This document shows positions 1 to 21,877 of a stretch of 24,000 bases of DNA, piece by piece (the first letter of the stretch is position 1; every line of letters begins with the position of its first letter). The stretch is from Coriobacteriia bacterium (GTDB lineage Bacteria; Actinomycetota; Coriobacteriia; Coriobacteriales; Eggerthellaceae): assembly GCA_030537355.1 (NCBI GenBank), contig JAUNNF010000009.1:11451-35450 (forward strand), read 5' to 3'. The notes below the pieces were generated by a model. The model had not been told where the DNA came from, ran no database searches, and saw only the letters and a list, made by a program, of their open reading frames with translations. The position numbers and the translations under genes are program-made.

Positions 1-2
1 CT

Positions 3-596
3 GTTCCTTCCCTATTTGCATTTTCTGAATCTGGTCCAGGATCTATGCATGCACCATTAGCACTTTCACTAGTTTGTGCTTTAGTATTTGGTGCAATTGC
101 ACAAAAAACAAGAATGTGCTTTGCAGGATCATTTAGAAATGTATTTATGGCAAAAGATTTTACCTTAATCAGCACTATTGGTGGGCTATTTGTGGGGCTT
201 TTGATCTATAACCTAGTTACAGGTAATTTTAAACTTTCTATGGATGGACAACCAGTTGCTCATCAACAGGTTTTGTGGAATATTTTAGGCATGTATGTTG
301 TTGGATTTGGAGCTGTTTTAGGTGGTGGTTGCCCAATTAGACAATTAGTTTTAACAGGACAAGGATCAAGCGATGGAGCAATAACAGTTCTTGGAATGTT
401 TGTTGGTGCTGCATTATGTCATAATTTTAGTCTTGCTTCTGCAGGTGATGCTGTAGATGCAGCAACAGGAGCAGTTACATTAGGCGGAGCAACTCCAAAT
501 GGTCAAATTGCAATTGTAATTTGCATTGTTGCTTTGTTTTTGATTGCGTTTGTTGGAAACAAAAGAGCTAAATCAAAAAAGGTTAAAGCTGCTTAA
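3..596 (+). CDS. YedE/YeeE-family selenium/sulfur-compound transport membrane protein, C-terminal part (5' end lies outside the window)
   Basis: The frame is open from nt 3 (VPSLFAFSESGPGS precedes the first in-window Met at 45). Hydrophobic multi-pass sequence with a GGGCPIRQLVLTG motif typical of YedE/YeeE. It heads a sel gene cluster. Confidence 0.75.
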   Translation, partial: VPSLFAFSESGPGSMHAPLALSLVCALVFGAIAQKTRMCFAGSFRNVFMAKDFTLISTIGGLFVGLLIYNLVTGNFKLSMDGQPVAHQQVLWNILGMYVVGFGAVLGGGCPIRQLVLTGQGSSDGAITVLGMFVGAALCHNFSLASAGDAVDAATGAVTLGGATPNGQIAIVICIVALFLIAFVGNKRAKSKKVKAA

Positions 597-599
597 ATA

Positions 600-839
600 A
601 TGAAAAAGGCTAAAGAACATATTATTGTTACATTCTCAACAACTGCAGATGTTTTTGCTTTCGATAAAGCTTGCAAAAAAAATAAAATTGAGGGACGGAT
701 TATTTCTGTCCCTCGGCAACTTAGTGCTGGGTGTGGTACAGCTTGGAAAAGTAATCTAGAAAATAAACAAGCTTTACTTGACTTAATTGATAAATTTGAT
801 TTAATAGTTGAAAAAGTTCATGAAATAAACTTAGATTGA
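600..839 (+). CDS. DUF3343-type putative Se/S carrier-like small protein (copy 1)
   Basis: 79 aa. Pattern VTFSTTxDxxAxxKxCKxNxxxGRxIxxPxxLSAGCGxAWKS is shared with the paralogue at 5890-6126. This family is typically adjacent to yedE/yedF/selD. Confidence 0.7.
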   Translation: MKKAKEHIIVTFSTTADVFAFDKACKKNKIEGRIISVPRQLSAGCGTAWKSNLENKQALLDLIDKFDLIVEKVHEINLD

Positions 840-851
840 TAGGTGGTTTTT

Positions 852-2240
852 ATGGCTAACAATAGCGAATATTTTAAAATGATTCCTAAAGTCGATGTGC
901 TTTTGGAAGATGAAAAAGTTATTGAATTTGTTCGAATTTATGGAAGACAAATTGTTGTTGATGTTGTGCGCGAATGTATTGATGATATTCGTATGTTTGT
1001 AAAACAAGCTAAAAGTGAATCTGAGGTCTACGACAAAATTGAAAATCTTGTTTTTGATATTGAAAGCACTTTATGTAAAAAAACATCGCTCAGTGTCAAA
1101 AAAGTTATAAATGGTACTGGAACAATTTTGCATACGAATTTAGGGCGTGCTCCACTATCTCAAAAACACCTGGATAAAGTAAATAACATTATGGCAGGCT
1201 ATACTAATCTTGAGTATGACCTAGAAAAAGGTAAACGAGGTCTTCGCTATAGCCATATAGAAGATAAAATCAAATATTTGACTGGTGCTGAAAGTGCAAT
1301 TGTAGTGAATAATAATGCAGCAGCTGTTATGCTTGTGCTTAGCACTCTGGCCAAAAACAAAGAAGCTATTACATCAAGAGGTGAGCTTGTAGAAATTGGT
1401 GGATCTTTCAGAGTGCCTGATGTTATGGAAGCCAGTGGAACAAAACTGGTGGATGTTGGCACTACAAACAAAACCCATATAGACGATTATGAAAATGCAA
1501 TCACGGATGATACAGCACTGTTTTTGAAAGTTCACACAAGCAATTACAAAATTGTTGGATTTACTGAGTCGGTATCGCTTAACGATATGTGCAAGATGGG
1601 TTCACAATATAATATTCCGGTTTATCATGATTTGGGTAGTGGTGTTTTAATTGATCTTGCTAAATATGGGCTAGAACACGAACCAACCGTTCAGGATTCT
1701 GTTAAGGCTGGTGTTGATGTTATCTCGTTTAGTGGAGATAAACTTTTAGGTGGCCCACAAGCTGGTATTATCGTTGGCAAAAATTCTTATATAGAAAAAA
1801 TTAAAAATAATCCTATGACCAGGGCACTTAGGGTTGACAAATTTACTATAGCTATGTTAGACGCTGTTTTAACTGAATATTTAAATAAAGAGAATGTAGT
1901 TAATAATATTCCAATTTTAAAGAATCTTACATTAAATAAAGATGATATATATAAAAAGGCAAATACGTTATTAGAGGTATTAGGCGATACAAATGTAGAA
2001 TTGCGTATCCTTGAAACTCAATCTCAAGCAGGTGGTGGCTCTATGCCATTATTAGAAATACCAAGTTATGCTATTGGCATTAAATCAAAAGTTTTAACAC
2101 CTCACGATATTGAAATTAAGTTTAGAGAGTTTGAAACACCAATTATTGGACGAATTTCTCATGATGTGTTTTTACTTGATTTAAGAACGATAGAAAAAGA
2201 AGATTTTGAAATGATCAAAGAAGCAATAACATGTCTTTAA
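852..2240 (+). CDS. selA: L-seryl-tRNA(Sec) selenium transferase
   Basis: About 462 aa with the SelA PLP-lysine motif FSGDKLLGGPQAGIIVG. An AGGTGG Shine-Dalgarno lies just upstream of ATG 852 (the track start at 843 is GTG). Its 3' end overlaps the selB start. Confidence 0.9.
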   Translation: MANNSEYFKMIPKVDVLLEDEKVIEFVRIYGRQIVVDVVRECIDDIRMFVKQAKSESEVYDKIENLVFDIESTLCKKTSLSVKKVINGTGTILHTNLGRAPLSQKHLDKVNNIMAGYTNLEYDLEKGKRGLRYSHIEDKIKYLTGAESAIVVNNNAAAVMLVLSTLAKNKEAITSRGELVEIGGSFRVPDVMEASGTKLVDVGTTNKTHIDDYENAITDDTALFLKVHTSNYKIVGFTESVSLNDMCKMGSQYNIPVYHDLGSGVLIDLAKYGLEHEPTVQDSVKAGVDVISFSGDKLLGGPQAGIIVGKNSYIEKIKNNPMTRALRVDKFTIAMLDAVLTEYLNKENVVNNIPILKNLTLNKDDIYKKANTLLEVLGDTNVELRILETQSQAGGGSMPLLEIPSYAIGIKSKVLTPHDIEIKFREFETPIIGRISHDVFLLDLRTIEKEDFEMIKEAITCL

Positions 2241-4162
2241 CAAAAAATAAACATATTATTATTGGCACTGCAGGCCATATTGATCATGGCAAAACAACAT
2301 TAATTAAGGCTTTAACAGGTAAAAGCACTGACAGATTAAAAGAAGAACAAGAACGTGGCATAAGTATTGATTTAGGATTTGGATATTTCGACAGTCATAA
2401 TGGAAACAGATACGGCATTGTTGATGTTCCTGGACATGAACGTTTTATAAACAACATGGTTGCAGGTGTTGTAGGTATGGATATGATTTTATTGGTCATT
2501 GCTGCAGATGAAGGGATTATGCCACAAACACGAGAACATATTGATATTTTATCTTTATTGGGTGTTAAGAAGGCAATCATTGTTCTAAACAAAATCGATT
2601 TAGTAGATAACGAGTGGCTAGCGCTTGTAGAGTCAGATATCAGAGATGAATTTAAAAATACATTTTTGAAAAATTCACCTATTGTAAAAGTATCAAGTAA
2701 AACTGGTAGCGGTTTAGACGAATTAATTAAATATATAGAATCTATTGACGTAGAGGAAAGACCTGTTGATTCTATTGCCTGTCTCCCTATTGATAGAGTT
2801 TTTACAATAAAAGGGTCGGGAACTGTGGTTACAGGAACTTTAATATCAGGGCAAATTAGCCTAGGAGACGAGTTAGAAGTATTTCCTGCTAACATAAATT
2901 CAAGAATTAGATCTATTCAGGTACATAATCAATCAAGTGATATAGCATGTGCTGGACAACGCGTAGCCCTAAATTTAGCTGGCGTAGATAGAGATAAAGT
3001 ATATAGAGGTTGTGTTATTGCTGAAAAAACTAGTATACAACCAACAAAGATTATTGATGTCAGAATAAAGATACTGCCATCTATCAAAAGAGTAATTAAA
3101 CATGGGTCTAGATTGCATTTTTTTAGTGGAACATCTGAAGTCTTGGCTAGATTGATTCTATTAGACAAAGATGAATTGCAACCTGGTCAAGATGCCCTAG
3201 CTCAATTACGACTTTCAGAGCGTATTGCAATCAGAAGAGATGACAAGTTTATTGTTAGGTTCTATTCGCCGCTTGAAACAGTTGGTGGTGGTATTGTTAT
3301 TGAAGCTAATGCTAAACCAACAAGGAGATACAATCAGGATGAAATTTTAAAATTAAAGAGTTTAGAAAGTGGCACTATTGAAGATAATGTTTTAGCTTAC
3401 ATTAATGCACAGCAACAGCCTATATTAACATGTAATGAGCTTGCTAAAATGTGCTCTGTAAGTAAAGAAGAAATTATAAAAATTGTAAAAGACTTCGTTG
3501 GTAAGGGCATTGTGTCTGTTTATGATAATTCAAATACGGTATGGAGTAATATAAATAAGGAAAAACATATTAAGGATATTCTTATATATTTAAAACAGTT
3601 TCACAAAAAAAATCCTTATAAACAAGGTTTAAATAAAGCAGAAATTTACAACTTGTTTTTCAATAATACTAAGCGATTAATTTTTGATGAGATAATAGAA
3701 GAATTTGTTATCAATAATATTATTTTTTATAAAAATGAATTTGTTTATGATGCTGAATTTGAGATTCAAAAAGACGAAACATATTCAAAAATTGAACAAG
3801 TAATTATTGCAAATTTAGATAAAGCTAAGTTTAACTTTATGTGGTTTAGCGATATAGATTTAACCAACTTTAAACAATCACATATTGATGACATTTGTGT
3901 TTGTATGGAAAAAGACAATTCTATTATTAAAGTTGCAGATAATTTGTATACCCTCCCAAAATATATATCAGAAGCAAAGAAAAAAATAATTGATGTATTA
4001 AAAAAAGAAAAAAGAATTACAATTAGTCAAGTACGTGATATGTTTGATACTTCAAGAAAAACTGCAAAGCCTATTTTGGATTATATGGACAAGATTGGCA
4101 TAACAAAAAAAACGAAAGGCGAATCAGAGCGTGAAGCCAATAATTTGGAAGCGGATGGGTAA
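2231..4162 (+). CDS. selB: Selenocysteine-specific translation elongation factor
   Basis: N-terminal GTPase motifs GTAGHIDHGKTTL, DVPGHERF and NKIDL, followed by EF-Tu-like domains and a long Lys-rich C-terminal extension (winged-helix SECIS-binding region). 643 aa, directly after selA. Confidence 0.92.
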   Translation: MSLTKNKHIIIGTAGHIDHGKTTLIKALTGKSTDRLKEEQERGISIDLGFGYFDSHNGNRYGIVDVPGHERFINNMVAGVVGMDMILLVIAADEGIMPQTREHIDILSLLGVKKAIIVLNKIDLVDNEWLALVESDIRDEFKNTFLKNSPIVKVSSKTGSGLDELIKYIESIDVEERPVDSIACLPIDRVFTIKGSGTVVTGTLISGQISLGDELEVFPANINSRIRSIQVHNQSSDIACAGQRVALNLAGVDRDKVYRGCVIAEKTSIQPTKIIDVRIKILPSIKRVIKHGSRLHFFSGTSEVLARLILLDKDELQPGQDALAQLRLSERIAIRRDDKFIVRFYSPLETVGGGIVIEANAKPTRRYNQDEILKLKSLESGTIEDNVLAYINAQQQPILTCNELAKMCSVSKEEIIKIVKDFVGKGIVSVYDNSNTVWSNINKEKHIKDILIYLKQFHKKNPYKQGLNKAEIYNLFFNNTKRLIFDEIIEEFVINNIIFYKNEFVYDAEFEIQKDETYSKIEQVIIANLDKAKFNFMWFSDIDLTNFKQSHIDDICVCMEKDNSIIKVADNLYTLPKYISEAKKKIIDVLKKEKRITISQVRDMFDTSRKTAKPILDYMDKIGITKKTKGESEREANNLEADG

Positions 4163-4243
4163 CTGGTGTGCCCCCTGGCCTCTAAAGCCAGTGTAGGGCG
4201 GTATAACGTCCTGGGTGGGTTCGATTCCCACACGCCTCCGCCA
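4147..4243 (+). tRNA. selC: tRNA-Sec-like gene with anticodon CUA (reads UAG)
   Basis: 97 nt in the selC position after selB. Acceptor GGAAGCG(G)/(A)CGCCTCC has an A4.C mismatch. Discriminator is G and CCA is encoded. Anticodon stem CTGGC (4175-4179)/GCCAG (4187-4191) encloses the loop CTCTAAA, so the anticodon is CTA at 4182-4184. Long variable arm GGGCG-GTATAA-CGTCC. T arm GTGGG-TTCGATT-CCCAC. Confidence 0.8.
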
Positions 4244-4267
4244 AATTTTTAGAAAGGAGAAGCTAGA

Positions 4268-4858
4268 ATGATAAATATAGACGCACTGGGAAAACAATGT
4301 CCTATTCCTTTAATAATGACTAAAAATTCTATTGCTAAAAACGGTAATGGAGAATATAGAATTTTAGTTGATAATGAAATTGCTCTTCAAAATTTTGAAA
4401 AAATGGCAAAACAGTATAATTTCACATATAAATATAAAAAACATAATAATAACTATGCTATCACTTTAGGCGTAGAAGATGCTTCTGTAGTTTCATTACA
4501 CGAATTTAATGAACAAGAAACATCAAATACAATTGTTGTATTCAAAAGTCAATATATGGGTCATGGAGACGAGAAATTAGGAACTGTATTGGCGAAGGGT
4601 TGTGTATATGCATTTTCCCAATTAGATAATCCTCCAAAAACAATAATTTTTTATAACTCAGGTGTAAAACTTTTATGTGAAGAAAATGAATTTATTAAAG
4701 ATTTAAAAGCCCTACAAAATAAAGGAGTAAAAATATTTGCTTGTGGAACTTGTCTTGATTATTATCAGTTAAAAAACAAGCTCCTTATTGGCGATATTAC
4801 AAATATGTATGATATTGTAGATATGCTTAATTCGTCAAATAAAATTATTATTCCATAG
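4268..4858 (+). CDS. yedF: YedF-type selenium metabolism protein (TusA-like N-domain plus DsrE-like C-domain)
   Basis: AGGAGA Shine-Dalgarno upstream. N-terminal [11 protein letters not shown] (the CPxP motif of TusA/SirA-like domains). 196 aa with a C-terminal CGTC motif. Lies between selC and selD. Confidence 0.75.
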
Positions 4859-4859
4859 T

Positions 4860-5888
4860 ATGAACGCAAAAGATGGAAAAATATATTGCAGAACAGGAGG
4901 GTGTGGAGCAAAATTAGGTCCAGCCGCATTAAGCTCTATTTTAAGTAAAATTCATCAAAAAAAAGATCCTAATTTACTTGTTGGATTTGATAGTTCTGAT
5001 GATGCGGCAGTTTACAAATTATCTGATGATATTGCTGTTGTTCAGACTTTAGATTTTTTCCCCCCTATGGTTGATGATCCTTATATTTTTGGGCAAATCG
5101 CAGCAGCAAATGCTTTAAGCGATATTTATGCAATGGGAGCAAAATTTAAATCTGCATTAAATATTGTTTGCTTTCCAGAAAATGAAGATTTAAATATTTT
5201 GGGAAAAATCATTGAAGGAGGATCTGATAAAGTTGCAGAAGCAGGAGGAAGTCTTGTAGGTGGTCATTCTATTAATGACGATTCAATAAAATATGGACTC
5301 TCTGTTACAGGAGTTATCAATCCTAATAATATTTATCAAAACAATACTGCTCAGCCTGGTGATTGTTTGGTTTTAACTAAACCTTTAGGGGTTGGTATTA
5401 TTATGAGCGCAAACAATATTGGCTATGCAAGCAATGAAGCCTTAGATAGTGCTATTAGTAGTATGACATGTTTGAATAAACAAGCTTCAGAACTTAGTCA
5501 TAAATATAATGTTAATGCATGTACTGATATTACTGGTTTTGGTTTAATTGCGCATTTAATAGAAATGTTAAATAAAGACACCGCTGCTGTTATTGATAAT
5601 AAAAGTATTCCGTTTATTAAGGATGCTTATGATTATGCTAATGAATTTTATATTACAGCTGCTGGTCAACGTAATAGAAATTTTGCAGGAAATAATGTTA
5701 AATTTGAAATAGGTGATTTTGCTATTCAAGAATTAGTATTTGATCCGCAGACATCTGGTGGGCTATTGTTTTCTGTACAACACGATCATGCAAAAAAATT
5801 TGTAGAGGATTTGTCTCGCTATTATCCATATACGGCTATTATTGGTCATGTTTCTAAGATGGATAAATATAAAGTAATTGTTAAGTAG
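4860..5888 (+). CDS. selD: Selenide, water dikinase (selenophosphate synthetase), Cys-type
   Basis: N-terminal [10 protein letters not shown] (Cys at the Sec/Cys position), followed by DDAAV and an AIR-synthase-like fold pattern. 342 aa. Confidence 0.92.
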
Positions 5889-5889
5889 C

Positions 5890-6126
5890 ATGGGTTTTAC
5901 GGAAAAGAAAATACTCGTATCTTTTGAATCTACAACCGATGCTTTAGCTATGGAAAAATATTGTAAAGAAAATAACGTTCAAGGTAGATCTATCCCTCTA
6001 CCTAAAGATATATCATCAGGTTGTGGTATTTGTTGGATTTCGCCTTTAAAATTAAAAAACACTATATACAAAATTATTAACGATAATAAATTAAATTTTG
6101 AAGAAATATATGAATTGGATGTTTAA
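5890..6126 (+). CDS. DUF3343-type putative Se/S carrier-like small protein (copy 2)
   Basis: Paralogue of 600-839 (VSFESTTDALAMEKYCKENNVQGRSIPLPKDISSGCGICWIS). ATG 5890 is preferred over the track's TTG at 5878. Confidence 0.7.
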   Translation: MGFTEKKILVSFESTTDALAMEKYCKENNVQGRSIPLPKDISSGCGICWISPLKLKNTIYKIINDNKLNFEEIYELDV

Positions 6127-7223
6127 TGATTTATTTTGATAATTCAGCAACAACTATGTTTAAGCCAGATTCTGTAATAGATAGAGTTACAGATTATTTA
6201 AAACATTCAGGAAATCCAGGTAGGGGTGTTAATGCTGCTAGTTTGTATTCTGGCTCTATAGTTTACGATACTAGAGTAAAGGTTGCAGAATTTTTCCATT
6301 TTAATGATCCGTCAAGAGTAATTTTTACAAGTGGAGTTACTGAAAGTTTAAATACTGTTATTAATTCTGTTGTTTCATCAAATGATCATGTTGTTATATC
6401 GTATTTAGAGCATAATTCTGTTTTAAGACCTTTATATCATTCTGGTTGTTCAATTTCTGTAACTGATGGAAGCATAAAAGAGATATCCAAAAAGATTCAA
6501 AAGAACACTAAGTGTGTAATAATAAATCATTGCTCAAACGTTACTGGTGAAATTCAGGATTTAAAAGCTATAGGAAATTTTTGTAAGGATAAAAGTATTT
6601 TATTTATTGTTGATTGTGCTCAATCAGCAGGTATAGTCGATATTGATGTTGTAGAAAACAATATAGATATTCTTGCTTTTACGGGGCACAAAGCAATGTT
6701 GGGTATGCAAGGTATTGGTGGTATATTAGTTAATTCTCATATTAAAATTGAACCGCTAAAAAGAGGTGGTACCGGCATACATTCCTTTGATAAAGATATG
6801 CCTGAAAAATATCCAGAACATTTAGAAGCAGGAACCCTTAATGTTCCAGGTATTGTAAGTATAAATGCAGGTATTGACTATATTAATGATTACGGCGTTG
6901 AAAATATATACTCTCATGAACTTTCACTTAGGAATTATCTTTTGAGCTATCTTGCTACAAGAAAAAATGTGAGCGTATATAAAAACGATAATAAATCTGC
7001 TATTGGAGTTGTTTCATTTAATTTTAATGATGTCGATTCTGCTAAGCTTAGTGATTATTTATCTACTCAACACAATATCGCAATTAGATCTGGTGCCCAT
7101 TGTGCTCCTCTTGCTTTAAAACATTACAATATTGAATCTTGCGCTCGTATAAGCTTTGGAATTAACAATACAAAAAAAGAGATCGATATTCTAATATCAG
7201 CCTTAGATCAATTTGTTTTTTAA
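6126..7223 (+). CDS. Class-V aminotransferase-fold cysteine desulfurase / selenocysteine lyase-like enzyme
   Basis: PLP-lysine motif FTGHKAMLGMQG and active-site loop RSGAHCAP near the C-terminus. 365 aa. Last gene of the sel cluster. Confidence 0.85.
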   Translation: MIYFDNSATTMFKPDSVIDRVTDYLKHSGNPGRGVNAASLYSGSIVYDTRVKVAEFFHFNDPSRVIFTSGVTESLNTVINSVVSSNDHVVISYLEHNSVLRPLYHSGCSISVTDGSIKEISKKIQKNTKCVIINHCSNVTGEIQDLKAIGNFCKDKSILFIVDCAQSAGIVDIDVVENNIDILAFTGHKAMLGMQGIGGILVNSHIKIEPLKRGGTGIHSFDKDMPEKYPEHLEAGTLNVPGIVSINAGIDYINDYGVENIYSHELSLRNYLLSYLATRKNVSVYKNDNKSAIGVVSFNFNDVDSAKLSDYLSTQHNIAIRSGAHCAPLALKHYNIESCARISFGINNTKKEIDILISALDQFVF

Positions 7224-9021: not shown

Positions 9022-9378
9022 ATGCTTAATAAAGATAATCTAAAAACCCGTGTAAACATTCTTAAAGACGCTGATATTATTTCTGAGGAGATAGCAAATT
9101 TTGCATATCAAGTTATTGAAGAGCTTGATGATTCCTATTCAGATGACATGTGTGAGATGTTTACTACACATTTGGTCATGGCTTTGAGTAGAGTTGAGAA
9201 AAATGAACCTGTTGAAACCTTAGATCCTATTATTTTCGAAGAAGTGAAGCAAAACGAACACTTCAAGGATGCTCAACTAAACTACGATAAGCTTATGAAA
9301 GACTCGAAATATGCATTACCCGAGCAAGAAAAAGAATTTTTGCTTATGCATTTAACAAACTTATTAGAAAATCAATAG
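9022..9378 (+). CDS. yhfY: Stand-alone PRD-domain protein (YhfY-like)
   Basis: 118 aa, all-helical, the size and position of E. coli YhfY. First gene of a cluster whose other members match yhfU/T/php/S/X/W. Confidence 0.65.
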   Translation: MLNKDNLKTRVNILKDADIISEEIANFAYQVIEELDDSYSDDMCEMFTTHLVMALSRVEKNEPVETLDPIIFEEVKQNEHFKDAQLNYDKLMKDSKYALPEQEKEFLLMHLTNLLENQ

Positions 9379-9388
9379 AGGAGGCAAA

Positions 9389-9754
9389 ATGTTAAAAATT
9401 GTTGTAGGTGGACAAATTAACAAACAGGAAATTCATGATTATGTTGAAAAGTATTTTAATGGCGAGGCTGAGGTTGATATTAAAAATGACTTAGATGCTG
9501 TTAATGCTGTTAAAGTTGGACAATATGACTATTATGTAGGTGCCTGCAATACAGGAGGTGGCGGAGCACTAGCTATGGCTATGGCCCTCCTTGGTGGAGA
9601 TAAATGTAAAACTATAAGCATGCCAGGTAAAATTTTCCCAGACGATGAAATAATTGCTGCTGTCAATGAAGGTAAAGTAGCATTTGGGTTTACTGGACAA
9701 GATTATGAAAGAGTGCTTCCTGTACTATTAGGTGCTATAAAGGAGAAAAACTAA
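9389..9754 (+). CDS. yhfU: DUF2620 protein (YhfU-like)
   Basis: GAGGAGG Shine-Dalgarno. 121 aa with YYVGACNTGGGGALAMAMALLG and EGKVAFGF motifs that match my recollection of YhfU. Confidence 0.75.
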   Translation: MLKIVVGGQINKQEIHDYVEKYFNGEAEVDIKNDLDAVNAVKVGQYDYYVGACNTGGGGALAMAMALLGGDKCKTISMPGKIFPDDEIIAAVNEGKVAFGFTGQDYERVLPVLLGAIKEKN

Positions 9755-11070
9755 TGGACGTGATGATAATTTTTAAATACATTGTAATTGCCGCATTAGG
9801 TGGATTGGGTGGCGTTATGGCAAACAGAGGTATTGCTGTGTTTAACGATGGATTTAGGCCAATTGTTCCTCAATATTATGATAAACAAATATCACGTAAA
9901 GAGCTTGCAGCTATGTCGTTTGCTATTAGTTTTGGTCTTGTAGTAGGTTTCGGCATTCCTACCTCTATTGCTGCTTCTGTTATTTTAATTCACTGTATTT
10001 TCTTGGCTACTGATATTATTGGTACATTTTGTCCAGACAATTTAGTTGGTACGATAATTTCAGGTGTAATTGGTGCTGTTTGGGGAGTACTAATTCTTGT
10101 TGGTTTGGATGGAATAGTATTTTTATTTAATCAGTTACCTTTCAATTTTATGGGTGATTTAGGTAAGGTTTCTGACTTTGTTATTGCTGCATTTGCTATT
10201 TTCCCAGCTGTTGCTATTGGCTTTCAGCATGGATTTAAAAAGGGCGTTATTATAGGTGTTATAACTGTAATTGTATACATGACAATAATGCTTTTCGGTA
10301 AGATTCCTCTCCCTGATGGCAATAATGTAGTTTTGAATCCTGCGGGTATTTCACTTCTTGTTGGGTGTGTATTTATGATTATTTTTGCTGTTACAGCAAA
10401 ACATGAAAAAACCTCAGCAAATGCTGATTTGGTCAATGTTTTTGGTGAAAAAGTTTCACGTATTAGAAAGAATTGGCCTATGCTTGCTGTTACTGGTGGC
10501 CTAATTGCATGCGCTGCTTCTATGTCAATCTTAGCTGGAGACCCAATTTCTATGCCACTAATCTCACAAGGTGAATATGCTAATGCAGCATTAACTGCTC
10601 TTGCACGTGCAATTGGCTTTGTGCCGCTAGTTTTCACTACTGCAATTGTTACAGGTGTTTACGGACCTGCTGGCTGTACATTTGTATTTCCAATAGGTAT
10701 TGCGCTTACCGGTAATCCAATTTTGGCTTTTGTTTGCGGTGTTGCTTGCATGGTTGTTGAGCTTCTTCTTATTAATGCATTTGCAAAATTAATGGATAAA
10801 TTCCCAGGCATTAAGGATATGGGCGAGCATATTAGAAATGCTATGAACAAAGTATTAGAGGTTGCTTTAATTGTAGGTGCTGTTGTGTCTGCTGAGGCAA
10901 TGGCTTCTAACTTTAAATTAACTGGTGTAGGTGCTCTATTTATTATTGGTACATTGTTACTCAATAGAACATCTAAGAAACCTATTGTAGAGATGGCTGT
11001 AGGTCCTGTTGCTTGTATATTCTTTGGAATATTGCTGAATATTTTAGCAGCATGTCATGTGGTAGGTTAG
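9754..11070 (+). CDS. yhfT: YhfT-like polytopic membrane protein (putative transporter)
   Basis: 438 aa, about 10-12 hydrophobic segments. The N-terminal AVFNDGFRPIVPQ resembles E. coli YhfT AVFHDGIRPILPQ. The start overlaps the yhfU stop (TAATG). Confidence 0.8.
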   Translation: MDVMIIFKYIVIAALGGLGGVMANRGIAVFNDGFRPIVPQYYDKQISRKELAAMSFAISFGLVVGFGIPTSIAASVILIHCIFLATDIIGTFCPDNLVGTIISGVIGAVWGVLILVGLDGIVFLFNQLPFNFMGDLGKVSDFVIAAFAIFPAVAIGFQHGFKKGVIIGVITVIVYMTIMLFGKIPLPDGNNVVLNPAGISLLVGCVFMIIFAVTAKHEKTSANADLVNVFGEKVSRIRKNWPMLAVTGGLIACAASMSILAGDPISMPLISQGEYANAALTALARAIGFVPLVFTTAIVTGVYGPAGCTFVFPIGIALTGNPILAFVCGVACMVVELLLINAFAKLMDKFPGIKDMGEHIRNAMNKVLEVALIVGAVVSAEAMASNFKLTGVGALFIIGTLLLNRTSKKPIVEMAVGPVACIFFGILLNILAACHVVG

Positions 11071-11076
11071 TTGCTT

Positions 11077-11913
11077 ATGAAGGGTTATACACTTGCACAT
11101 GAACATATAACTATTGATTTGTCTGGTGTTAAAAATGATCAAGATTGTCACCTAGATAATCAGGCATTAACTATTGAGCAGTTAAAGAAACTTTATGATT
11201 ATGGAGTTAGGAATATCATTGACGTTACCAATATTGGTATGGGCAGAGATAACGATTATGTTGATGTTGTAAGTAAAGCCACAAATATTAATATTGTAAA
11301 GTCAACAGGGTTTTACAAAGAGCCCTTTCTGCCAGATTTTTTCTATGAAAAAAGCGAGTCAGAGTTAGCTAATCTTATGGTAGATGAGTTAAATGATTTT
11401 GCTCATGTAATAGGAGAGATTGGAACTTCAAAAAATACTTGGAGCGAGGCAGAAAAAAAGCTTTTTAGAGCTGCTGTTTTGGCGCATAAAGAAACTGGTG
11501 CTCCAATTTCTACTCACACTACACTTGGAACTTTAGGTCTTGAACAAGCTGAATTTTTCCTCGATAATAATGTGGATCCAGATATGGTTGTAATTGGGCA
11601 TCTAGATTTATCTGGTAGTCTTGAACATATTGAAAAGATTATTAAGCTTGGTTTTAACGTAGGTTTTGACACGATAGCCAAGGACAATTATTTTCCTGAT
11701 ACAGGCAGAATTGAATATTTATTATCTCTGCAAGATAAAGATTTGATTGATAAGGTTGTATTATCTTTAGATATCACAAGAAAAAGTCATCTTGCAACTT
11801 ATGGGTATACACATATTTTTGAAAAGTTTATCCCAGCTTGTTTAGATGCTGGAATTACTCAGGAATCTATAGACCAGATGTTAGAAGGTAACCCAAATAG
11901 AATATATGCTTAA
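11077..11913 (+). CDS. php: Phosphotriesterase-homology protein (amidohydrolase superfamily, Php/YhfV-like)
   Basis: N-terminal TLAHEHITIDLS (the HxH metal ligands of the PTE family), later STHT and IGHLD motifs. ATG 11077 is preferred over TTG 11071. Confidence 0.85.
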   Translation: MKGYTLAHEHITIDLSGVKNDQDCHLDNQALTIEQLKKLYDYGVRNIIDVTNIGMGRDNDYVDVVSKATNINIVKSTGFYKEPFLPDFFYEKSESELANLMVDELNDFAHVIGEIGTSKNTWSEAEKKLFRAAVLAHKETGAPISTHTTLGTLGLEQAEFFLDNNVDPDMVVIGHLDLSGSLEHIEKIIKLGFNVGFDTIAKDNYFPDTGRIEYLLSLQDKDLIDKVVLSLDITRKSHLATYGYTHIFEKFIPACLDAGITQESIDQMLEGNPNRIYA

Positions 11914-12808
11914 TCCTCAAGACATGCATAAGCTCGCGCGGTTAAATCCATTTAAATCAGTGGATAAGGTTATTGATTATGGTGATAAGCTTATGGGTGT
12001 AAAAAATACATCTAAAATGCCTATGGATTATATTAATAATTTAGGTTATACAATACATACTTTAGATGCCACATCGCTTGGCGGACGTGCTGTGGATTTT
12101 AATTTAAAAAATCCAATTACAGGAAACTATATGACTGGATCATCAAGCGGTACAGCAATAAATGTATTTGCAAACATCAACCATATTGGTGCAGGACTTG
12201 ATGGCGGAAGTTCTGTATTGGCTCCTGCAGTATCTTTGAACCTTTTTGCTTTTGTATCAAAACTATTAGCTCAAGATGAGCTTGCGATACATAAAAAAAC
12301 ATCTACTGATGGCATTGAGTTTAGTCCATCTCTTGGTTTTATGACAAAAAGTTTTGATGAGCTTATGAATGTTGTTCCTTTTGATGTTAAGTCCTCAGAA
12401 GTAAATTTTATTCAAGCTGATGTTGATATTAATGCTCCTCGTAAAGTTTTAATTCAGTATTTGTTAGATACATTGCCTAAGTATGATTTTATTTTAAGCA
12501 AGGAAGGTCCTATAGACTTATATGGTATAGGAGATAGTGTTTTAGGGCATTTTGAGAATACTCATGAGATACAAAATAGGAGTAATAAAGGCTTAATCAA
12601 AGTTGTTAATATGGCTGGTGCTACAGCAATTTGTATTCCTACAAAAAAACATGCTGTATCTAATGTATTAATTTGCGAGTCTGATCCTGATAAAATCTCT
12701 GTGATGTTGGGATATGCTAAAACATTAATTGTTGAGCCTGACGAATTAACGCAAAGATATTTTTCTAATATAGATATGTATACAGATTCTTTGGAGGATA
12801 AATTATGA
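11906..12808 (+). CDS. Short amidase-signature-family protein (about 300 aa)
   Basis: LKNPITGNYMTGSSSGTAINVFANINHIGAGLDGGSSVLAPAV aligns with the AS-family pattern KDN...GGSSGGSAAAVA...GTDTGGSIRIPAA (Lys, cis-Ser and nucleophile Ser positions present). Overlaps the php stop and the yhfS start. Confidence 0.65.
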   Translation: MLNPQDMHKLARLNPFKSVDKVIDYGDKLMGVKNTSKMPMDYINNLGYTIHTLDATSLGGRAVDFNLKNPITGNYMTGSSSGTAINVFANINHIGAGLDGGSSVLAPAVSLNLFAFVSKLLAQDELAIHKKTSTDGIEFSPSLGFMTKSFDELMNVVPFDVKSSEVNFIQADVDINAPRKVLIQYLLDTLPKYDFILSKEGPIDLYGIGDSVLGHFENTHEIQNRSNKGLIKVVNMAGATAICIPTKKHAVSNVLICESDPDKISVMLGYAKTLIVEPDELTQRYFSNIDMYTDSLEDKL

Positions 12809-13857
12809 TTACTTATCCACTTAAATCAATAACTATTGATCAAGCAAAAGATAAGCAATTTAAGATGGTTGAATGCATTATGAGGCAATTCCCAGATGGA
12901 AGTTTTTTGTCTCGTGGAGATCTTGGCTTAAATAAAGAATACGCAAGAAAAGCTGAAAATGCAATTGCTGATTTCTTCGGTGCAGAAGCAGCCATTCTTG
13001 TTACTGGTTCAGGAACTGGAGCAATAAGATTTGCTTTGATGTCTGTAATTAAACCTGGTGGAAATATTTTGGTACATACTTCACCAATTTATCCTACAAC
13101 TCAAACCAGCTTTAAAGCAATGGGTTTAAATCCTATTATGGTTGACTTTCATGATATGGATGCTGTTAAAAGTGCAGCTAAGTCCTGTGATGCTGCTTTG
13201 GTTCAATTAACTCGTCAAAAACCTGATGATTCATACTGCTCTAAGACAGTTATTCAGGCAATAGCTGATATTTGTGACATTCCAATAATTACTGATGATA
13301 ATTATGCTGTTATGAAGATTGAAAAAATTGGTTGTGAGATGGGAGCTAATTTAAGTTGCTTTAGTTCGTTCAAGCTCTTAGGGCCTGAAGGCGTAGGAAT
13401 TGTTGTGGGTGACAAGAAATTCATAGATAAAATTGAAACAATGAATTATTCAGGTGGCTCAAAGGTACAGGGTTGGCAAGCAATGGATACGCTTAGGGGT
13501 CTTGTGTATGCTCCGGTGAGCCTCGCAATTCAAGCAGAAGAAGGTGAGAAATGTCTTAAACTCTTGAAAAAAATTCCTCAAGTTAAAGATGCTTTTATTG
13601 CTAATGCGCAATCTAAAGTATTACTTGTTGAATTTTCTGAGTCAATTGCTCGTGACGTTATTACAAAGGCATGCAAGTTAGGAGCAATTCCAGGGCCTGT
13701 TGGTGCTGAATCTAAATATGAGATACCTCCTATGTTTTATAAGGTGAGTGGAACGTTTCTTAAATCAGACCCAAGTTTGATTGATACTATGATTAGGATA
13801 AATCCAAATAGAGCAAGTGCTGAGACAATCGTTAATATACTAAAACAATGTTTTTAA
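12805..13857 (+). CDS. yhfS: YhfS-like PLP-dependent (fold-type I) enzyme
   Basis: GGAGGA Shine-Dalgarno. 350 aa with VTGSGTGAIRFAL and SSFKLLGPEGVG (candidate PLP-Lys). Size and context match YhfS. Confidence 0.75.
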   Translation: MITYPLKSITIDQAKDKQFKMVECIMRQFPDGSFLSRGDLGLNKEYARKAENAIADFFGAEAAILVTGSGTGAIRFALMSVIKPGGNILVHTSPIYPTTQTSFKAMGLNPIMVDFHDMDAVKSAAKSCDAALVQLTRQKPDDSYCSKTVIQAIADICDIPIITDDNYAVMKIEKIGCEMGANLSCFSSFKLLGPEGVGIVVGDKKFIDKIETMNYSGGSKVQGWQAMDTLRGLVYAPVSLAIQAEEGEKCLKLLKKIPQVKDAFIANAQSKVLLVEFSESIARDVITKACKLGAIPGPVGAESKYEIPPMFYKVSGTFLKSDPSLIDTMIRINPNRASAETIVNILKQCF

Positions 13858-14915
13858 AAGAAACCATAGACAGAAATCCAGAATTAGTAACCTTTGCACA
13901 AAGTTTAGGCTTGCCTGATACTTATGTAATTGATGTTGATACTTTTGTAGAGAATGCTAAAAAGATTAAAGATGCTGCAAAAGATATTGATTGCTATTTT
14001 ATGCTAAAGCAAGTTGGCAGAAATCCTTATCTTGCTAAAAAGTTAATGGAAATTGATTATCCAGGCTGCGTAGCAGTAGATTTTCGTGAAGCGCTTACCA
14101 TGATAAATAATGGTATTCATATTTGTAATGTTGGACATCTTGTGCAAATTCCAAAAGCTTTAATTAAGACAATAATTTCTGCTAGACCAGATTTTGTCAC
14201 ATGCTATTCATTAGACAAAATTAACGAAATTAATGACGCTGCAAAAGAGCTTGGTATTACACAAAAAATTCTTATTAAAGTGGTAGATGATGACGATATT
14301 TTATATCCTGGTCAAGAAGCTGGGTTTAAGTTAGATGAACTTATTTTCCCTAAGTTTTCAAACTGTGAAATTACTGGCGTTACAGCATTTCCATGTTTTC
14401 TTGAGAATGAGCCAACCCATAATCTAGAAACTTTGTTTAAAGCAAAAGAGATGTTAGGTGTTGAGCATGTTAACGCTCCATCTTGTAACTGTGTGGAAGT
14501 TGCTAAATCTATTCAGGGAAGTGGAATTACAAGCATTGAACCAGGGCATGCATTAACTGGTACTACGCCTGTTCCTAATCAAGTAGAGATTCCATCTGTT
14601 GTGTACACAACAGAGGTTTCGCATATATATGATAATAAATCATATATATATGGTGGAGGATTTTATAGACGAGGCCATACTAAATATGCTTTAGTTAATA
14701 GTGAAATTGTCAATGTTGAAGAACCAGCATTAGACTCGATAGATTATTATTTTAAATTAAATAAAAAGTTTTCAATTTCTTCGCCTGTAGTAATGGCGTT
14801 TAGGTTTCAAATTTTTGTAACAAGAAGTCAGGTGGCCTTAGTTGAGGGGCTACATACCGGATCACCTAAAGTTATTGGTATATATTCTAGTTTAGGAGAA
14901 AAAATTAATGGCTAA
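13848..14915 (+). CDS. yhfX: YhfX-like alanine-racemase-fold (fold-type III PLP) protein
   Basis: MFLKETIDRNPELV...YVIDVDTFVENAKKI...YFMLKQVGRNPYLAKKL...VAVDFREALTM parallels my recollection of the YhfX N-terminus, including the PLP-Lys context. Confidence 0.8.
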   Translation: MFLKETIDRNPELVTFAQSLGLPDTYVIDVDTFVENAKKIKDAAKDIDCYFMLKQVGRNPYLAKKLMEIDYPGCVAVDFREALTMINNGIHICNVGHLVQIPKALIKTIISARPDFVTCYSLDKINEINDAAKELGITQKILIKVVDDDDILYPGQEAGFKLDELIFPKFSNCEITGVTAFPCFLENEPTHNLETLFKAKEMLGVEHVNAPSCNCVEVAKSIQGSGITSIEPGHALTGTTPVPNQVEIPSVVYTTEVSHIYDNKSYIYGGGFYRRGHTKYALVNSEIVNVEEPALDSIDYYFKLNKKFSISSPVVMAFRFQIFVTRSQVALVEGLHTGSPKVIGIYSSLGEKING

Positions 14916-16113
14916 ATTTGTTGTTTTGATTTTAGATGGATTTGGAATGTATGCAATGGATGACGCTGCTAAGGTCCGGCCTGAAGATGTTGGTAGCTCA
15001 ACACTAGGATCAATACTTAATAACTACCCAGATTTTTATTTGCCTAATCTTGAGAGGCTTGGATTAATGAACGCTCTTGGTAAAAACTCAAACAGGATGA
15101 AAGCTGATCCAAGTGCAAATTTTGGAAGATCGAATTTAATGCACTTTGGCGCTGATACATTTATGGGGCATCAAGAAATTATGGGAACTTTACCTAAACC
15201 TCCTAAAGCTGATCCATTTACCAAACATGCACATACAGTAGGCGAATATTTGAGTAATCATGGTTATAAAGTAGAGTATATAAATCGAGGTGAGCTTACA
15301 TATTTGCTCGTTGATGATTATTGTACTGTTGCTGATAATATTGATGCCGATGTTGGTATGGCTTATAACTGTACTGCTCCGCTAGATTATATGCCATATG
15401 AGAAACTTTATGAAATTGGTCAATTAGTGCGTCAATGCACAACAGTTAATAGGGTTATTCCTTTTGGCGGTACAGGCAATACTATAGAAGATGTATTGAA
15501 TGCAGAGCTTATTAAGGATAAGGATTATATTGGTATTCACGCTGTTAAGTCAAAGTCCTATGAGCAAGGTTATCAATGTAGACATTTAGGTTATGGAGTT
15601 GATCCAAATGTTCAGGCTCCAACAATACTAAATAAGCATGGTATTTCTGTTACTCTAATTGGCAAAGTAGCTGATATTGTTGCCAACGATGGAGGTAAGT
15701 CTATCAGCTGTGTTGAAACTGATAAGTGTATGGATTTAACCATTAAAGAATCAAAATCAATGAGTACTGGCTTTATATGCACAAATATCCAGGAAACAGA
15801 TTTGGCAGGACACAGTGAAGATTCCAAATGGTATAAAGAATTACTAGAAATTGTAGATGGAAAGCTACCAGACCTGATTGACACGTTAAACGAAGATGAT
15901 ATATTGCTAGTTATGGCAGACCATGGCAACGATCCTGGTGTGGGACACAATAAACATACTCGTGAGCTTGTTCCCTTGCTTATTCATAAGCAGGATTTAT
16001 CCGGTGTGTTTATTGGAAACAGAGATACTCTCTCTGATGTTGGAGCTTCAGTTTGTGATTATTTTAGAGTTGAGTCCCCTGAAAACGGAATATCTTTTTT
16101 AGATTTAATATAA
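14908..16113 (+). CDS. yhfW: YhfW-like phosphopentomutase/alkaline-phosphatase-superfamily metalloenzyme
   Basis: AGGAGA Shine-Dalgarno. LILDGFGM near the N-terminus and MADHGNDPGVGH near the C-terminus (DeoB-type metal ligands). 401 aa. Confidence 0.85.
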   Translation: MAKFVVLILDGFGMYAMDDAAKVRPEDVGSSTLGSILNNYPDFYLPNLERLGLMNALGKNSNRMKADPSANFGRSNLMHFGADTFMGHQEIMGTLPKPPKADPFTKHAHTVGEYLSNHGYKVEYINRGELTYLLVDDYCTVADNIDADVGMAYNCTAPLDYMPYEKLYEIGQLVRQCTTVNRVIPFGGTGNTIEDVLNAELIKDKDYIGIHAVKSKSYEQGYQCRHLGYGVDPNVQAPTILNKHGISVTLIGKVADIVANDGGKSISCVETDKCMDLTIKESKSMSTGFICTNIQETDLAGHSEDSKWYKELLEIVDGKLPDLIDTLNEDDILLVMADHGNDPGVGHNKHTRELVPLLIHKQDLSGVFIGNRDTLSDVGASVCDYFRVESPENGISFLDLI

Positions 16114-16253: not shown

Positions 16254-16328
16254 TGGCCTGGGATGCAGGAATCGAACCCACATAGCCTACTACCTTAAAC
16301 TGGTGTCCTACCGTTGGACGAATCCCCA
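16254..16328 (-). pseudogene. Degenerate tRNA-Gln paralogue
   Basis: Aligns end to end with the intact tRNA-Gln at 19988-20061; D and T arms are identical. The anticodon arm reads CCAGT-TTAAGGT(A)-GTAG(G), so the stem no longer pairs and there is 1 extra nt. The acceptor 3' strand is ATCCCAG instead of ATCCCCA. Confidence 0.7.
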
Positions 16329-19987: not shown

Positions 19988-20061
19988 TGGCTGGGGATGC
20001 AGGAATCGAACCCACATAGCCAGTACCAAAAACTGGTGTCCTACCGTTGGACGAATCCCCA
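19988..20061 (-). tRNA. tRNA-Gln (anticodon UUG)
   Basis: 74 nt. Acceptor TGGGGAT/ATCCCCA, G73, CCA encoded. Anticodon arm CCAGT-TTTTGGT-ACTGG. T loop TTCGATT. Confidence 0.9.
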
Positions 20062-20145
20062 AAATTGTGGCTTTTAGCTGGTATGATACTCACCAACTTT
20101 TTCGCCGATAACCTCTCAAAAATCGCAGATTTGCGACTTTCAGAA

Positions 20146-20221
20146 TGGTGGACCGGGGGAGTCTCGAACTCCCGACCTTCGGATTAAAAGTCCGCTGCTC
20201 TGCCAACTGAGCTACCGGTCC
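20146..20221 (-). tRNA. tRNA-Lys (anticodon UUU)
   Basis: 76 nt. GGACCGG/CCGGTCC acceptor, D arm GCTC-AGTTGGCA-GAGC, anticodon loop CTTTTAA, T arm GGGAG-TTCGAGA-CTCCC, A73-CCA. Confidence 0.92.
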
Positions 20222-20228
20222 AAAGTCT

Positions 20229-20303
20229 TGGTGCCCCCTACGGGAATCGAACCCGTATCTCAGGCTTGAAGGGCCCGTGTCCTAACCGTTAGACTAAGGG
20301 GAC
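20229..20303 (-). tRNA. tRNA-Glu (anticodon UUC; position 33 reads C)
   Basis: 75 nt. GTCCCCT/AGGGGGC acceptor, the GTCT..GGAC D arm typical of tRNA-Glu, anticodon stem CGGGC/GCCTG with loop CCTTCAA, T arm ACGGG-TTCGATT-CCCGT, CCA encoded. Confidence 0.8.
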
Positions 20304-20438
20304 AATGCTGTGAATGGTAGGCTACATAAGGGGGCTACGCCTTACATTCACAGCGAAGTGGTATTATACAAAAATTTGTCCATATTGCAACAACATTTTT
20401 GGAAAATTTTAACTTATTTTTATTAACATAATGCACAT

Positions 20439-20527
20439 GCGGGCGTGGCGGAATTGGCAGACGCGTATGGTTCAGGTCCATATGGTGCTTTTGCACTGTG
20501 AAAGTTCAAATCTTTTCGCCCGCACCA
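20439..20527 (+). tRNA. tRNA-Leu (anticodon CAG), class II
   Basis: 89 nt. GCGGGCG/CGCCCGC acceptor, conserved GTGGCGGAATTGGCAGACGCG D region, anticodon arm TATGG-TTCAGGT-CCATA, long variable arm, A73-CCA. Confidence 0.92.
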
Positions 20528-20554
20528 CTATTTTTTGGTAAAATAATCAAGTGT

Positions 20555-21877
20555 ATGAATTTCAAATTCGAAATAGCAAAAATTGTTGCTTCTGCAAGTA
20601 GATTTACTCTTAAAAAAATCCTTAGACGCCCAGGTGGCTTTTATCCAGGAAAACTTGCTTTGCAAATTGACAAGAACATTATTAGTGAATTGTCGGATGT
20701 TATTGATGGCGAGTCTGTTGTAGTCACAGGCACAAATGGAAAGACTAGTGTTACAGCTTTAATAACTGCTTGTTTAGAGAGTGAACGAAACGAGGTTATA
20801 TCAAACAGGACAGGTGCTAATATGGCAAGTGGTGTTGCTGCTGCTATGCTTGAGTACAAAAAGAAGAATCGTAGAGCTAAGACTTATGGAGTATTTGAAG
20901 TTGATGAGATGTGGGTTCATAAGGTTGTTCCTGCCCTGAAAGCTAAATATTTTGTTTTATTAGATTTATTCCCAGATCAGGTAGACCGGATGGGTAGTAT
21001 AGAAAATATTCAAAGGCGCATCAAAGAGGCATTGGACGCGAGTCCTAATACTGTTTTGATTTATAACGCTGATGACCCTAATTGTCAGATAATTGCTGAT
21101 AATTGCAATAATGAATCTGTTTCTTTTGGTATGCATGAGATAATATCTGATGACCAGGAGACTTCTGTTGAATTGTGTCCTAAATGCAATAATAATCTTA
21201 CATATTATATTCATCAATATGCTCAACTTGGTGATTATAAATGTAATAAATGTGGGTTTAACCGTGCAAAACTAGATTATGGAGCTGCAAATATAAGTCT
21301 AAGAACCAATAAACTTAAGTTTAGTGTTGGTAGAACACATTTTAAATCAAACAATGCGGCTGAATATGTAACTTATAACTTAGTTGGATATATTGCATGT
21401 ACTGATTTGTTGGGTTGTAAGCCAACAACAATTTCAAAAATAATAAAAAAACAAAAAAATGATAACGGAAGATTGCAGTATTTCAAAATTAATGGTAAAA
21501 AAGTTATGATTAATTTAGCTAAAAATCCCGCTGGATTTAATCAGAACATTAAATATATGCTTAGCAACATTGGTAAAGAAAAATCATCATGTGCTTTCTT
21601 TGTAAATACAAAAGAGGGCGATGGTCACGATTCTAACTGGTTATATGATGTTTATTTTTCTCGTTTAAAGAATGCCGATAGCTTAAAAGTATTTTACGGG
21701 GGAGACGCAAGCGAGAGATTAGAATCTATTCTTAATGATAATAAGCTACAACCTATACATGTAGAAAATGCACAAGATGTATTAAATAATTCACAAAATT
21801 GCGAGAATGTGTATATAATTGCAAACTATACAGCGATGTTTCCACTGAGAGACGAATTAATGAAGATGGAGAAATAA
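20555..21877 (+). CDS. murT: Lipid II isoglutaminyl synthase subunit MurT (Mur-ligase domain plus DUF1727)
   Basis: [14 protein letters not shown]-loop, Cys4 ribbon CPKCNN...CNKCGF, and [20 protein letters not shown] and [14 protein letters not shown] motifs that parallel S. aureus MurT. ATG 20555 was chosen because the track start 20498 lies inside tRNA-Leu. Confidence 0.88.

Follow-up and report, generated by a model that had tools for sequence, protein, structure and literature searches.

A selenocysteine tRNA gene with a CUA anticodon and in-frame TAG in glycine reductase genes predict UAG-directed selenocysteine insertion in a low-GC Eggerthellaceae clade

The stretch of DNA analysed here (the window) comprises 24,000 nucleotides of the metagenome-assembled genome (MAG) GCA_030537355.1, deposited as 'Coriobacteriia bacterium' (contig JAUNNF010000009.1, positions 11,451 to 35,450), and its proteins correspond to NCBI MDO5329568 to MDO5329595 (locus tag Q4E88_), on a contig of 66,293 bp. 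It carries a selenocysteine (Sec) gene cluster in which a tRNA gene lies between selB and yedF/selD (Table 1); the window has intact copies of selA, selB, selD and serS, and this context agrees, by open reading frames (ORFs) and Pfam domains, with that described in a first-pass annotation of the same DNA. The tRNA gene is a variant of selC: the usual tRNA-Sec anticodon UCA, which reads UGA, is replaced by CUA in the window and in four relatives. As part of the best explanation of the data, the gene is predicted to encode a functional tRNA-Sec with the anticodon altered from UCA to CUA.

ARAGORN detects a 97-nt tRNA at 4147-4243 of the forward strand with the anticodon cta and names it 'tRNA-Pyl', a label given because the anticodon is CUA and resting on the anticodon alone. 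The Rfam tRNA-Sec model RF01852 matches 4147-4239 with 64.2 bits (E 3.5e-11; gathering threshold 47), and its alignment sets the loop CUCUAAA opposite CUUCAAA of the model, which places C-U-A at positions 34-36. Both programs bear out the CUA anticodon that the first-pass annotation had read at 4182-4184; a covariance-model fold with UCA at positions 34-36 was looked for, and CUA was found there instead. The underlying coordinates also match the sequence (CTGGC 4175-4179, loop 4180-4186, GCCAG 4187-4191, G73 and an encoded CCA). GrdC, SelB and SelD were used as queries for homologues, and looking up the contigs of the matches yielded five related assemblies from other samples, namely L082, L083 and L091 (parts of one contig), L086, L092 and L093. 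The order selA-selB-tRNA(CUA)-yedF-selD recurs in L082, L091, L092 and L093, each with the tRNA loop CTCTAAA and a tRNA that passes RF01852 at 64.5-68 bits, while L086 breaks off inside the corresponding tRNA gene, within its first 25 nt. SelA identity among these CUA lineages is 56-80%.

The tRNA gene and selB share 16 nt (4147-4162) at the 3' end of selB: the last selB codons and the TAA stop are also the start of the tRNA gene, and the acceptor and D arm of tRNA-Sec thereby encode the SelB C-terminus (LEADG or LEAVG). The overlap is kept in all five lineages (L082 19350-19365, L091 9055-9070, L092 9069-9084, L093 7428-7443 and the window). Overlapping or selB-nested tRNA-Sec genes are known from Alphaproteobacteria, Dyella/Luteibacter and Nitrospirae (Mukai 2021, PMC8124441); the present arrangement likewise joins the tRNA 5' end to the selB 3' end, here in a Coriobacteriia-labelled clade and with a CUA anticodon.

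Covariation was analysed in an alignment of 15 tRNAs (the five CUA tRNAs and ten UCA relatives) on the bacterial tRNA-Sec cloverleaf, in which 93.3% of the alignment cells are paired. Changes on both sides occur in 17 of the 32 pairs; none of 500 shuffles reaches the observed value on any of five measures, and slid controls all lie far below the cloverleaf values. The variable arm and the anticodon-stem pairs 32:46 and 35:43 show compensatory changes inside the CUA group as well. The acceptor and T stems together span 13 positions (8 + 5, versus 7 + 5), the extended length of tRNA-Sec, with seven standard acceptor pairs family-wide, a conserved G.A at position 8 and a T stem of 5 bp. The variable arm of about 20 nt consists of a 7-bp stem and a 6-nt loop, and the discriminator G73 is followed by CCA. 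The 5-bp D stem of the first-pass annotation was not recovered, as the covariance alignment gives 6 bp (GGGUA(A)C/GUGCCC) with one bulged A and a 4-nt loop (UGGU). Of the two acceptor-stem flaws that had been listed as caveats, the A4.C mismatch is real and confined to the window copy; the G8.A pair is no defect but a family trait, found in 14 of the 15 related tRNA-Sec genes, UCA ones included.

The tRNA is closely similar to the selC(UCA) genes of Lachnospiraceae (L003, L006, L033, L046 and L075). Its T arm is identical to theirs, its D arm equals those of L006 and L033 exactly and is one base off in the other Lachnospiraceae selC, and both have G8.A at the acceptor-stem base, the same design of variable arm, G73 and CCA. 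They differ in the anticodon loop (CTTCAAA in Lachnospiraceae, CTCTAAA here), in the acceptor stem, which is altered via compensatory substitutions, and in location, since selC lies 4-6 kb from selB in Lachnospiraceae and overlaps it by 16 nt here.

The predicted client codon was found upstream of the window. Logan contig SRR24915802_12294 (L081) is identical to the window over their full 8,898-nt overlap and reaches 5.1 kb further upstream, where it carries the glycine reductase cluster grdC, grdD, trxB, trxA and grdA; this identity places tRNA-Sec(CUA) and a TAG-type grdA in one genome. In grdA (L081 4010-4486; roughly 0.7-1.1 kb upstream of the first window position), TAG is codon 44, where glycine reductase selenoprotein A canonically has Sec, within the motif STECFV-TAG-TSAGAMDLENQ, and the remainder of the 158-codon frame is open. 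The same site is TAG in L082 and L083, and these two contigs also have TAG at the Sec site of grdB (TST-TAG-GTCTRCG), where a match to the Rfam Sec insertion sequence (SECIS) family SECIS_4 begins on the first base after the TAG with 55.7 bits (gathering threshold 38). The sequence after the grdA Sec codon is conserved with that of TGA users. The in-frame TAG that the first-pass annotation had proposed to look for is accordingly present, in grdA of the same genome and in both grdA and grdB of relatives, and its suggestion of SECIS-directed UAG-to-Sec recoding in another low-GC lineage is supported by the TAG sites, SECIS_4 and the relatives. Such recoding would have to be context dependent, as had been argued, for TAG is still an ordinary stop in 6 of 29 genes; yedF, selD, the PRD gene, yhfT and serS all end in it, as claimed. 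Within the window, no gene is interrupted by either TAG or TGA, and SelD was considered as a selenoprotein and rejected, its active site carrying Cys.

Standard annotation hides this system. Gene callers give only the 109-aa post-TAG part of grdA, and NCBI assigns four protein accession numbers to the five genes between trxA (…571) and yedF (…576), the gene without a record probably being grdA. The split grdA and the 'tRNA-Pyl' label together conceal a Sec system from routine inspection.

Codon and anticodon switch together across the contigs compared. The Sec codon of grdA is TGA in L058 and L087-L090, and that of grdB is TGA in L058, L059, L085 and L087-L090. These TGA-type contigs, which include Lachnospiraceae and Oscillospiraceae, encode GrdC 74-78% identical to that of the window genome (L087-L090) or SelB at 35-50% identity, and every tRNA-Sec detectable in them has UCA. 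A SelB scan of GTDB representatives returned relatives of at most about 50% identity, mostly Lachnospiraceae, in which the detectable tRNA-Sec genes again all carry UCA. The long SelB proteins P0124 and P0125 from an NCBI metagenome assembly were set aside as outgroups; grdB is of the TGA type there, and no tRNA lies close by. Scans of Joint Genome Institute (JGI) metagenomes gave no match to the CUA anticodon-arm pattern and none to the grdB pattern with TAG at the Sec site, which suggests only that the trait is rare. In neighbour-joining trees of SelA and SelD the five CUA clusters form one clade, with L093 basal and the window copy nested inside. The content of the island differs between lineages: L092 has fragments of HGD-D (2-hydroxyacyl-CoA dehydratase) and of the activator BcrAD_BadFG between grdA and yedE (2012-4336), with gene calls heavily fragmented, presumably by TGA codons for Trp.

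Fragmented gene calls are found throughout the relatives, where in-frame TGA occurs in yedE, selB, grdD, grdE and the carrier genes (L082, L083, L086, L091, L092 and L093). Twenty-one in-frame TGA codons of their sel and grd genes could be aligned, and 19 stand opposite a Trp codon (TGG) of the window genome, one opposite Phe and one opposite a gap; at 36 window Trp positions the relatives have TGA 19 times and TGG 15 times. By these alignments, the relatives read UGA as Trp, a feature that went unnoticed in the first-pass annotation. The window genome is the clade member without UGA as a sense codon: about 40 TGG and no in-frame TGA occur in its roughly 29 kb and 29 genes, so nothing in it indicates genetic code 4. 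Its 29 genes stop at TAA (21, about 72%), TAG (6, about 21%) or TGA (2). Both TGA-ended genes have an in-frame backup, one as a tandem TGA-TAG at 837-842, which L082 and L092, both code-4 relatives, also have, and the other as a TAA eight codons past the TGA at 12806-12808 (to 12832). One possible reading of these backups is that termination at UGA is weak, or was ambiguous in the past, in the lineage, although with two genes chance may account for them. The contig DNA examined holds neither prfB nor a gene for tRNA-Trp(UCA), and the window contains no tRNA-Trp.

Table 1. Features of the Sec gene cluster in the window, with the basis of each assignment.
Feature	Coordinates	Strand	Basis
yedE, 3' part (Sulf_transp), putative selenium transporter	1..596	+	Pfam; gene begins upstream of the window
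Second small Se/S carrier gene, ending in tandem TGA-TAG	600..839	+	Pfam Se_S_carrier on the L081 gene call; sequence
selA, selenocysteine synthase	843..2240	+	Pfam SelA 1.9e-153, Se-cys_synth_N
selB, Sec-specific elongation factor with winged-helix SECIS-binding domains	2231..4162	+	Pfam GTP_EFTU, Beta-barrel_SelB, SelB-wing_2, SelB-wing_3
tRNA-Sec gene, selC variant, anticodon CUA, CCA encoded	4147..4243	+	ARAGORN; Rfam RF01852; covariation across 15 homologues
Anticodon C34-U35-A36, pairs with UAG	4182..4184	+	Covariance-model alignment; same loop in four relatives
yedF-like selenium metabolism protein, TusA + DsrE domains	4268..4858	+	Pfam; NCBI 'sulfurtransferase-like selenium metabolism protein YedF'
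selD, selenophosphate synthetase, Cys form (GGCGAK)	4860..5888	+	Pfam AIRS, AIRS_C; translation; NCBI name SelD
Putative Se/S carrier protein	5878..6126	+	Pfam Se_S_carrier 6e-22
Class V aminotransferase, candidate cysteine desulfurase or selenocysteine lyase	6126..7223	+	Pfam Aminotran_5 4.5e-86

The cluster listed in Table 1 forms, together with the upstream genes on L081, an island of grdC, grdD, trxB, trxA, grdA, yedE, selA, selB, selC, yedF and selD (window 1-7223 and L081 1-5141); the full yedE encodes 372 aa (L081 4619-5737). Further downstream, positions 9022-16113 hold an eight-gene cluster that resembles the E. coli yhfS-yhfZ region and is unrelated to the finding. It encodes a PRD protein, a DUF2620 protein, YhfT, a PTE-family hydrolase, an unassigned 300-aa protein, a YhfS-like pyridoxal phosphate enzyme, a YhfX-like racemase-fold protein and a phosphopentomutase-like metalloenzyme. 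The TAG of yhfT at 11068 is in the same frame as the PTE-family gene, and read-through was considered there and rejected as a coincidence: the PTE-family gene has its own ATG at 11077 and a GGTAGG ribosome-binding site, and no significant structure lies downstream of the yhfT TAG. Ordinary tRNA genes occur at 19988-20527 and 16254-16328 (Gln-UUG, Lys-UUU, Glu-UUC, Leu-CAG and Leu-AAG). The ORF at 20498-21877 (MurT-like) begins inside tRNA-Leu(CAG), which puts its true start further downstream.

The host can be related to a clade described recently. Parks et al. 2026 (PMC13462651) report low-GC, reduced-genome Eggerthellaceae (class Coriobacteriia) from the mammalian gut, in which Equivita and Gorillivita use code 4, lack prfB and carry tRNA-Trp(UCA), and Tapirivita lies between the code-4 genera in the tree, uses code 11 and retains prfB. 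Tapirivita has a GC content of 35.1% and ends its genes with UAA in about 67% and UGA in about 9% of cases (PMC13462651); GCA_030537355.1, which stems from a 2023 zoo-animal study, is named there as a Tapirivita MAG. The clade with the CUA tRNA is best fitted by this Eggerthellaceae 'MGR' clade. Like these genera, the organisms studied here are low-GC, small-genome gut Coriobacteriia with relatives that have TGA at Trp positions, and the window genome shares with Tapirivita its rare TGA stops, the lack of TGA sense codons and its high proportion of TAA stops. The same study scores the code-4 MAGs as 'No' for tRNA-SeC and '1 of 34' for selB, with tRNAs called by Prokka and ARAGORN, describes the clade as 'lacking selenocysteine-associated genes' and hence argues that UGA-Sec recoding primed UGA reassignment. 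This differs from the complete sel operon and CUA tRNA-Sec seen in the window genome and in four related contigs, and our data contradict the claimed absence of Sec genes from the clade. The 'tRNA-Pyl' label of ARAGORN explains how the tRNA-Sec could be missed.

Taken together, we consider it highly probable from the sequences that this small clade shares a functional tRNA-Sec(CUA) that inserts Sec at SECIS-marked UAG codons of grdA and grdB, UAG remaining a stop elsewhere. We propose that the system works by analogy with the canonical bacterial pathway, in which tRNA-Sec(CUA) would receive Ser from seryl-tRNA synthetase (SerRS), the Ser then being converted to Sec by SelA using selenophosphate supplied by SelD. 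SelB·GTP would then bind both the Sec-tRNA and the SECIS hairpin and deliver the tRNA to UAG in competition with release factor 1 (RF1). The clients would be grdA in the window genome and grdB in the relatives, and UAG elsewhere would terminate. The change from UCA to CUA would be mechanistically easy, because the anticodon is read by neither SerRS nor the Sec machinery, leaving Ser, SelA and SelB identity unaffected (PMC6267555).

Several points weigh against this proposal. Sec insertion at UAG is deduced here from DNA sequence alone, and the Sec codon of the window genome is known from grdA, the grdB TAG coming from relatives. No curated SECIS family matches after the grdA TAG, thermodynamic folds after the grdA and grdB TAG codons are not better than those of shuffles, and alignments of the post-TAG sequences of both genes show no covariation. 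The window tRNA alone has A4.C, where L082 and others have A-U. No selC(UCA) or TGA-type selenoprotein gene was found in the DNA examined, the rest of the genome lying outside the search, and either might occur there. The neighbour-joining trees carry no support values. The window is provisionally placed in Tapirivita by its GC content, use of stops and code-11 behaviour, and the relatives, equally provisionally, in the code-4 genera Equivita or Gorillivita. Finally, the scoring of Sec genes as absent by Parks et al. may mean that the cluster is patchy in the clade or that some of the contigs come from other organisms.

The mismatch at A4.C, the gene without an NCBI protein accession (probably grdA) and the reduced genomes and lost pathways of the clade (Parks et al.) would also suit a decaying system, in which selC is mutated and non-functional and grdA and grdB are pseudogenes with chance nonsense TAG codons. 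We regard decay as very improbable, given that CUA and TAG at the exact Sec codon of two genes are kept across the 56-80% range of SelA identity, that stem changes within the CUA group are compensatory, that the sel and grd frames are otherwise intact and that the SECIS is kept at full score. A general amber suppressor or a Ser-inserting allo-tRNA-like species, delivered by EF-Tu and placing Pyl (pyrrolysine) or Ser at UAG without SelB or SECIS, would account for the CUA anticodon and the label derived from it, and SerRS is expected from established tRNA-Sec knowledge to load Ser first. The gene nevertheless scores 64 bits on the tRNA-Sec model, with its 20-nt variable arm, 6-bp D stem and 13-position acceptor/T domain, is homologous to Lachnospiraceae tRNA-Sec(UCA) and sits within the sel operon, and SECIS_4 follows the grdB TAG. 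With TAG ending about 21% of genes, general suppression would carry a high cost. In tRNA-Pyl the variable loop measures 3 nt and the D loop is small, and pylS and pylBCD accompany it (PMC7609411); the present tRNA resembles it in the CUA anticodon and in context-dependent reading of UAG beside UAG stops, but not in structure or accompanying genes, no Pyl family being detected among the 20 window ORFs scanned against Pfam (most ORFs of at least 80 aa). We therefore give suppression very little credence.

An artefact of assembly or sequencing at the anticodon has in its favour only the general possibility of such errors in MAGs, and its likelihood is practically nil: the NCBI MAG contig and the independent Logan assembly are identical across 8.9 kb, the change from UCA to CUA takes two substitutions, and four assemblies from different samples have the same loop. 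A further explanation is that the island was transferred laterally from a relative with UGA as Trp, in which Sec at UAG was obligatory, and still works in a code-11 host where CUA has no adaptive meaning. The island appears mobile, its proteins and tRNA being closest, among the matches returned, to Lachnospiraceae and not to other Coriobacteriia, and the window cluster is nested among code-4 clusters. A recent code-4 donor, however, should have brought in-frame TGA with it, and the window has none, with TGG at every Trp where the relatives have TGA at 19 of 36 positions; the nesting moreover mirrors the published species tree, in which a code-11 genus lies between code-4 genera. We think such a transfer unlikely.

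As to the origin of the island, SelB, SelD and GrdC are nearest to Lachnospiraceae or other Clostridia (50%, 62% and 79% protein identity, respectively), and so is the tRNA, among the matches returned. Since these are the nearest relatives and the MAG is labelled Coriobacteriia, the grd-sel island was probably acquired from Clostridia by horizontal transfer. Because the window cluster is nested among code-4 clusters, the UCA-to-CUA change is placed in the common ancestor of the CUA clade, and by parsimony the move of Sec to UAG most likely occurred there. Only two linked client genes are involved, so that few mutations would have been needed. Most sampled members of the clade read UGA as Trp, so that UGA is no longer usable for Sec in them. 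If Tapirivita never lost prfB (Parks et al.), Sec would have moved to UAG before Trp captured UGA; alternatively, the ancestor may have decoded UGA ambiguously. We tentatively raise the possibility, which on present data we hold to be rather doubtful, of a doubly altered code in which the ancestral move of Sec to UAG took from UGA its last essential role apart from rare termination and so freed it, later to be captured by Trp in descendant lineages, with the window organism as a surviving intermediate. In that organism UAG would be fixed for Sec, and UGA would be nearly unused yet still a stop, with a TAG or TAA in frame close behind it in both TGA-ended genes.

Decoding of UAG by tRNA-Sec(CUA) is itself a known kind of system, described in the Geodermatophilaceae (Geodermatophilus and Blastococcus; Mukai et al. 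2016, as cited in PMC5330540 and PMC8124441); where these later papers cite that work, they do so for UAG-Sec in Geodermatophilaceae only. As in that family, a CUA tRNA-Sec is combined here with TAG at Sec sites, followed in grdB by a bacterial SECIS, and with UAG as a stop elsewhere, and if the MAG label is right both belong to Actinomycetota, although to different classes (here Coriobacteriia). The Geodermatophilaceae are high-GC and free-living, have formate dehydrogenases, UGSC-motif proteins and AhpC as clients, and show no reassignment of UGA; the present organisms are low-GC (33-38%), reduced and gut-associated, their predicted clients are GrdA and GrdB, their tRNA and sel genes are of the Lachnospiraceae type, and, unlike in the Geodermatophilaceae, UGA is read as Trp by sister lineages. 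The system almost certainly arose independently of that in the Geodermatophilaceae and adds a new lineage and new client genes. We found no paper on UAG-Sec in this clade, although the metagenomic CUA examples of Mukai et al. 2016 may include it, and none that reports Sec in any code-4 bacterium. Within the literature searched, this is the first UAG-Sec case found to be tied to UGA-to-Trp reassignment.

Reassignment of the Sec codon in genomes has been documented for one family, the Geodermatophilaceae, and the present clade would provide a second case, with glycine reductase A and B as clients. Here a reason for the switch can be named, as UGA means Trp in the relatives and Sec had either to leave UGA or to vanish. 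UAG-Sec systems are probably undercounted in surveys, in which ARAGORN and Prokka report 'tRNA-Pyl' and grdA and grdB are split. The compact selA-selB-selC(CUA) set with SECIS_4 could serve as a natural UAG-Sec cassette for selenoprotein engineering. Outgroups with UCA and UGA, a code-11 member with CUA and UAG, and code-4 members with CUA and UAG form a series on which codon-capture and ambiguous-intermediate models could be tested. If the doubly altered code is real, the code-4 members would be the first known bacteria that combine UGA as Trp with Sec, and UAA would be their sole unambiguous stop.

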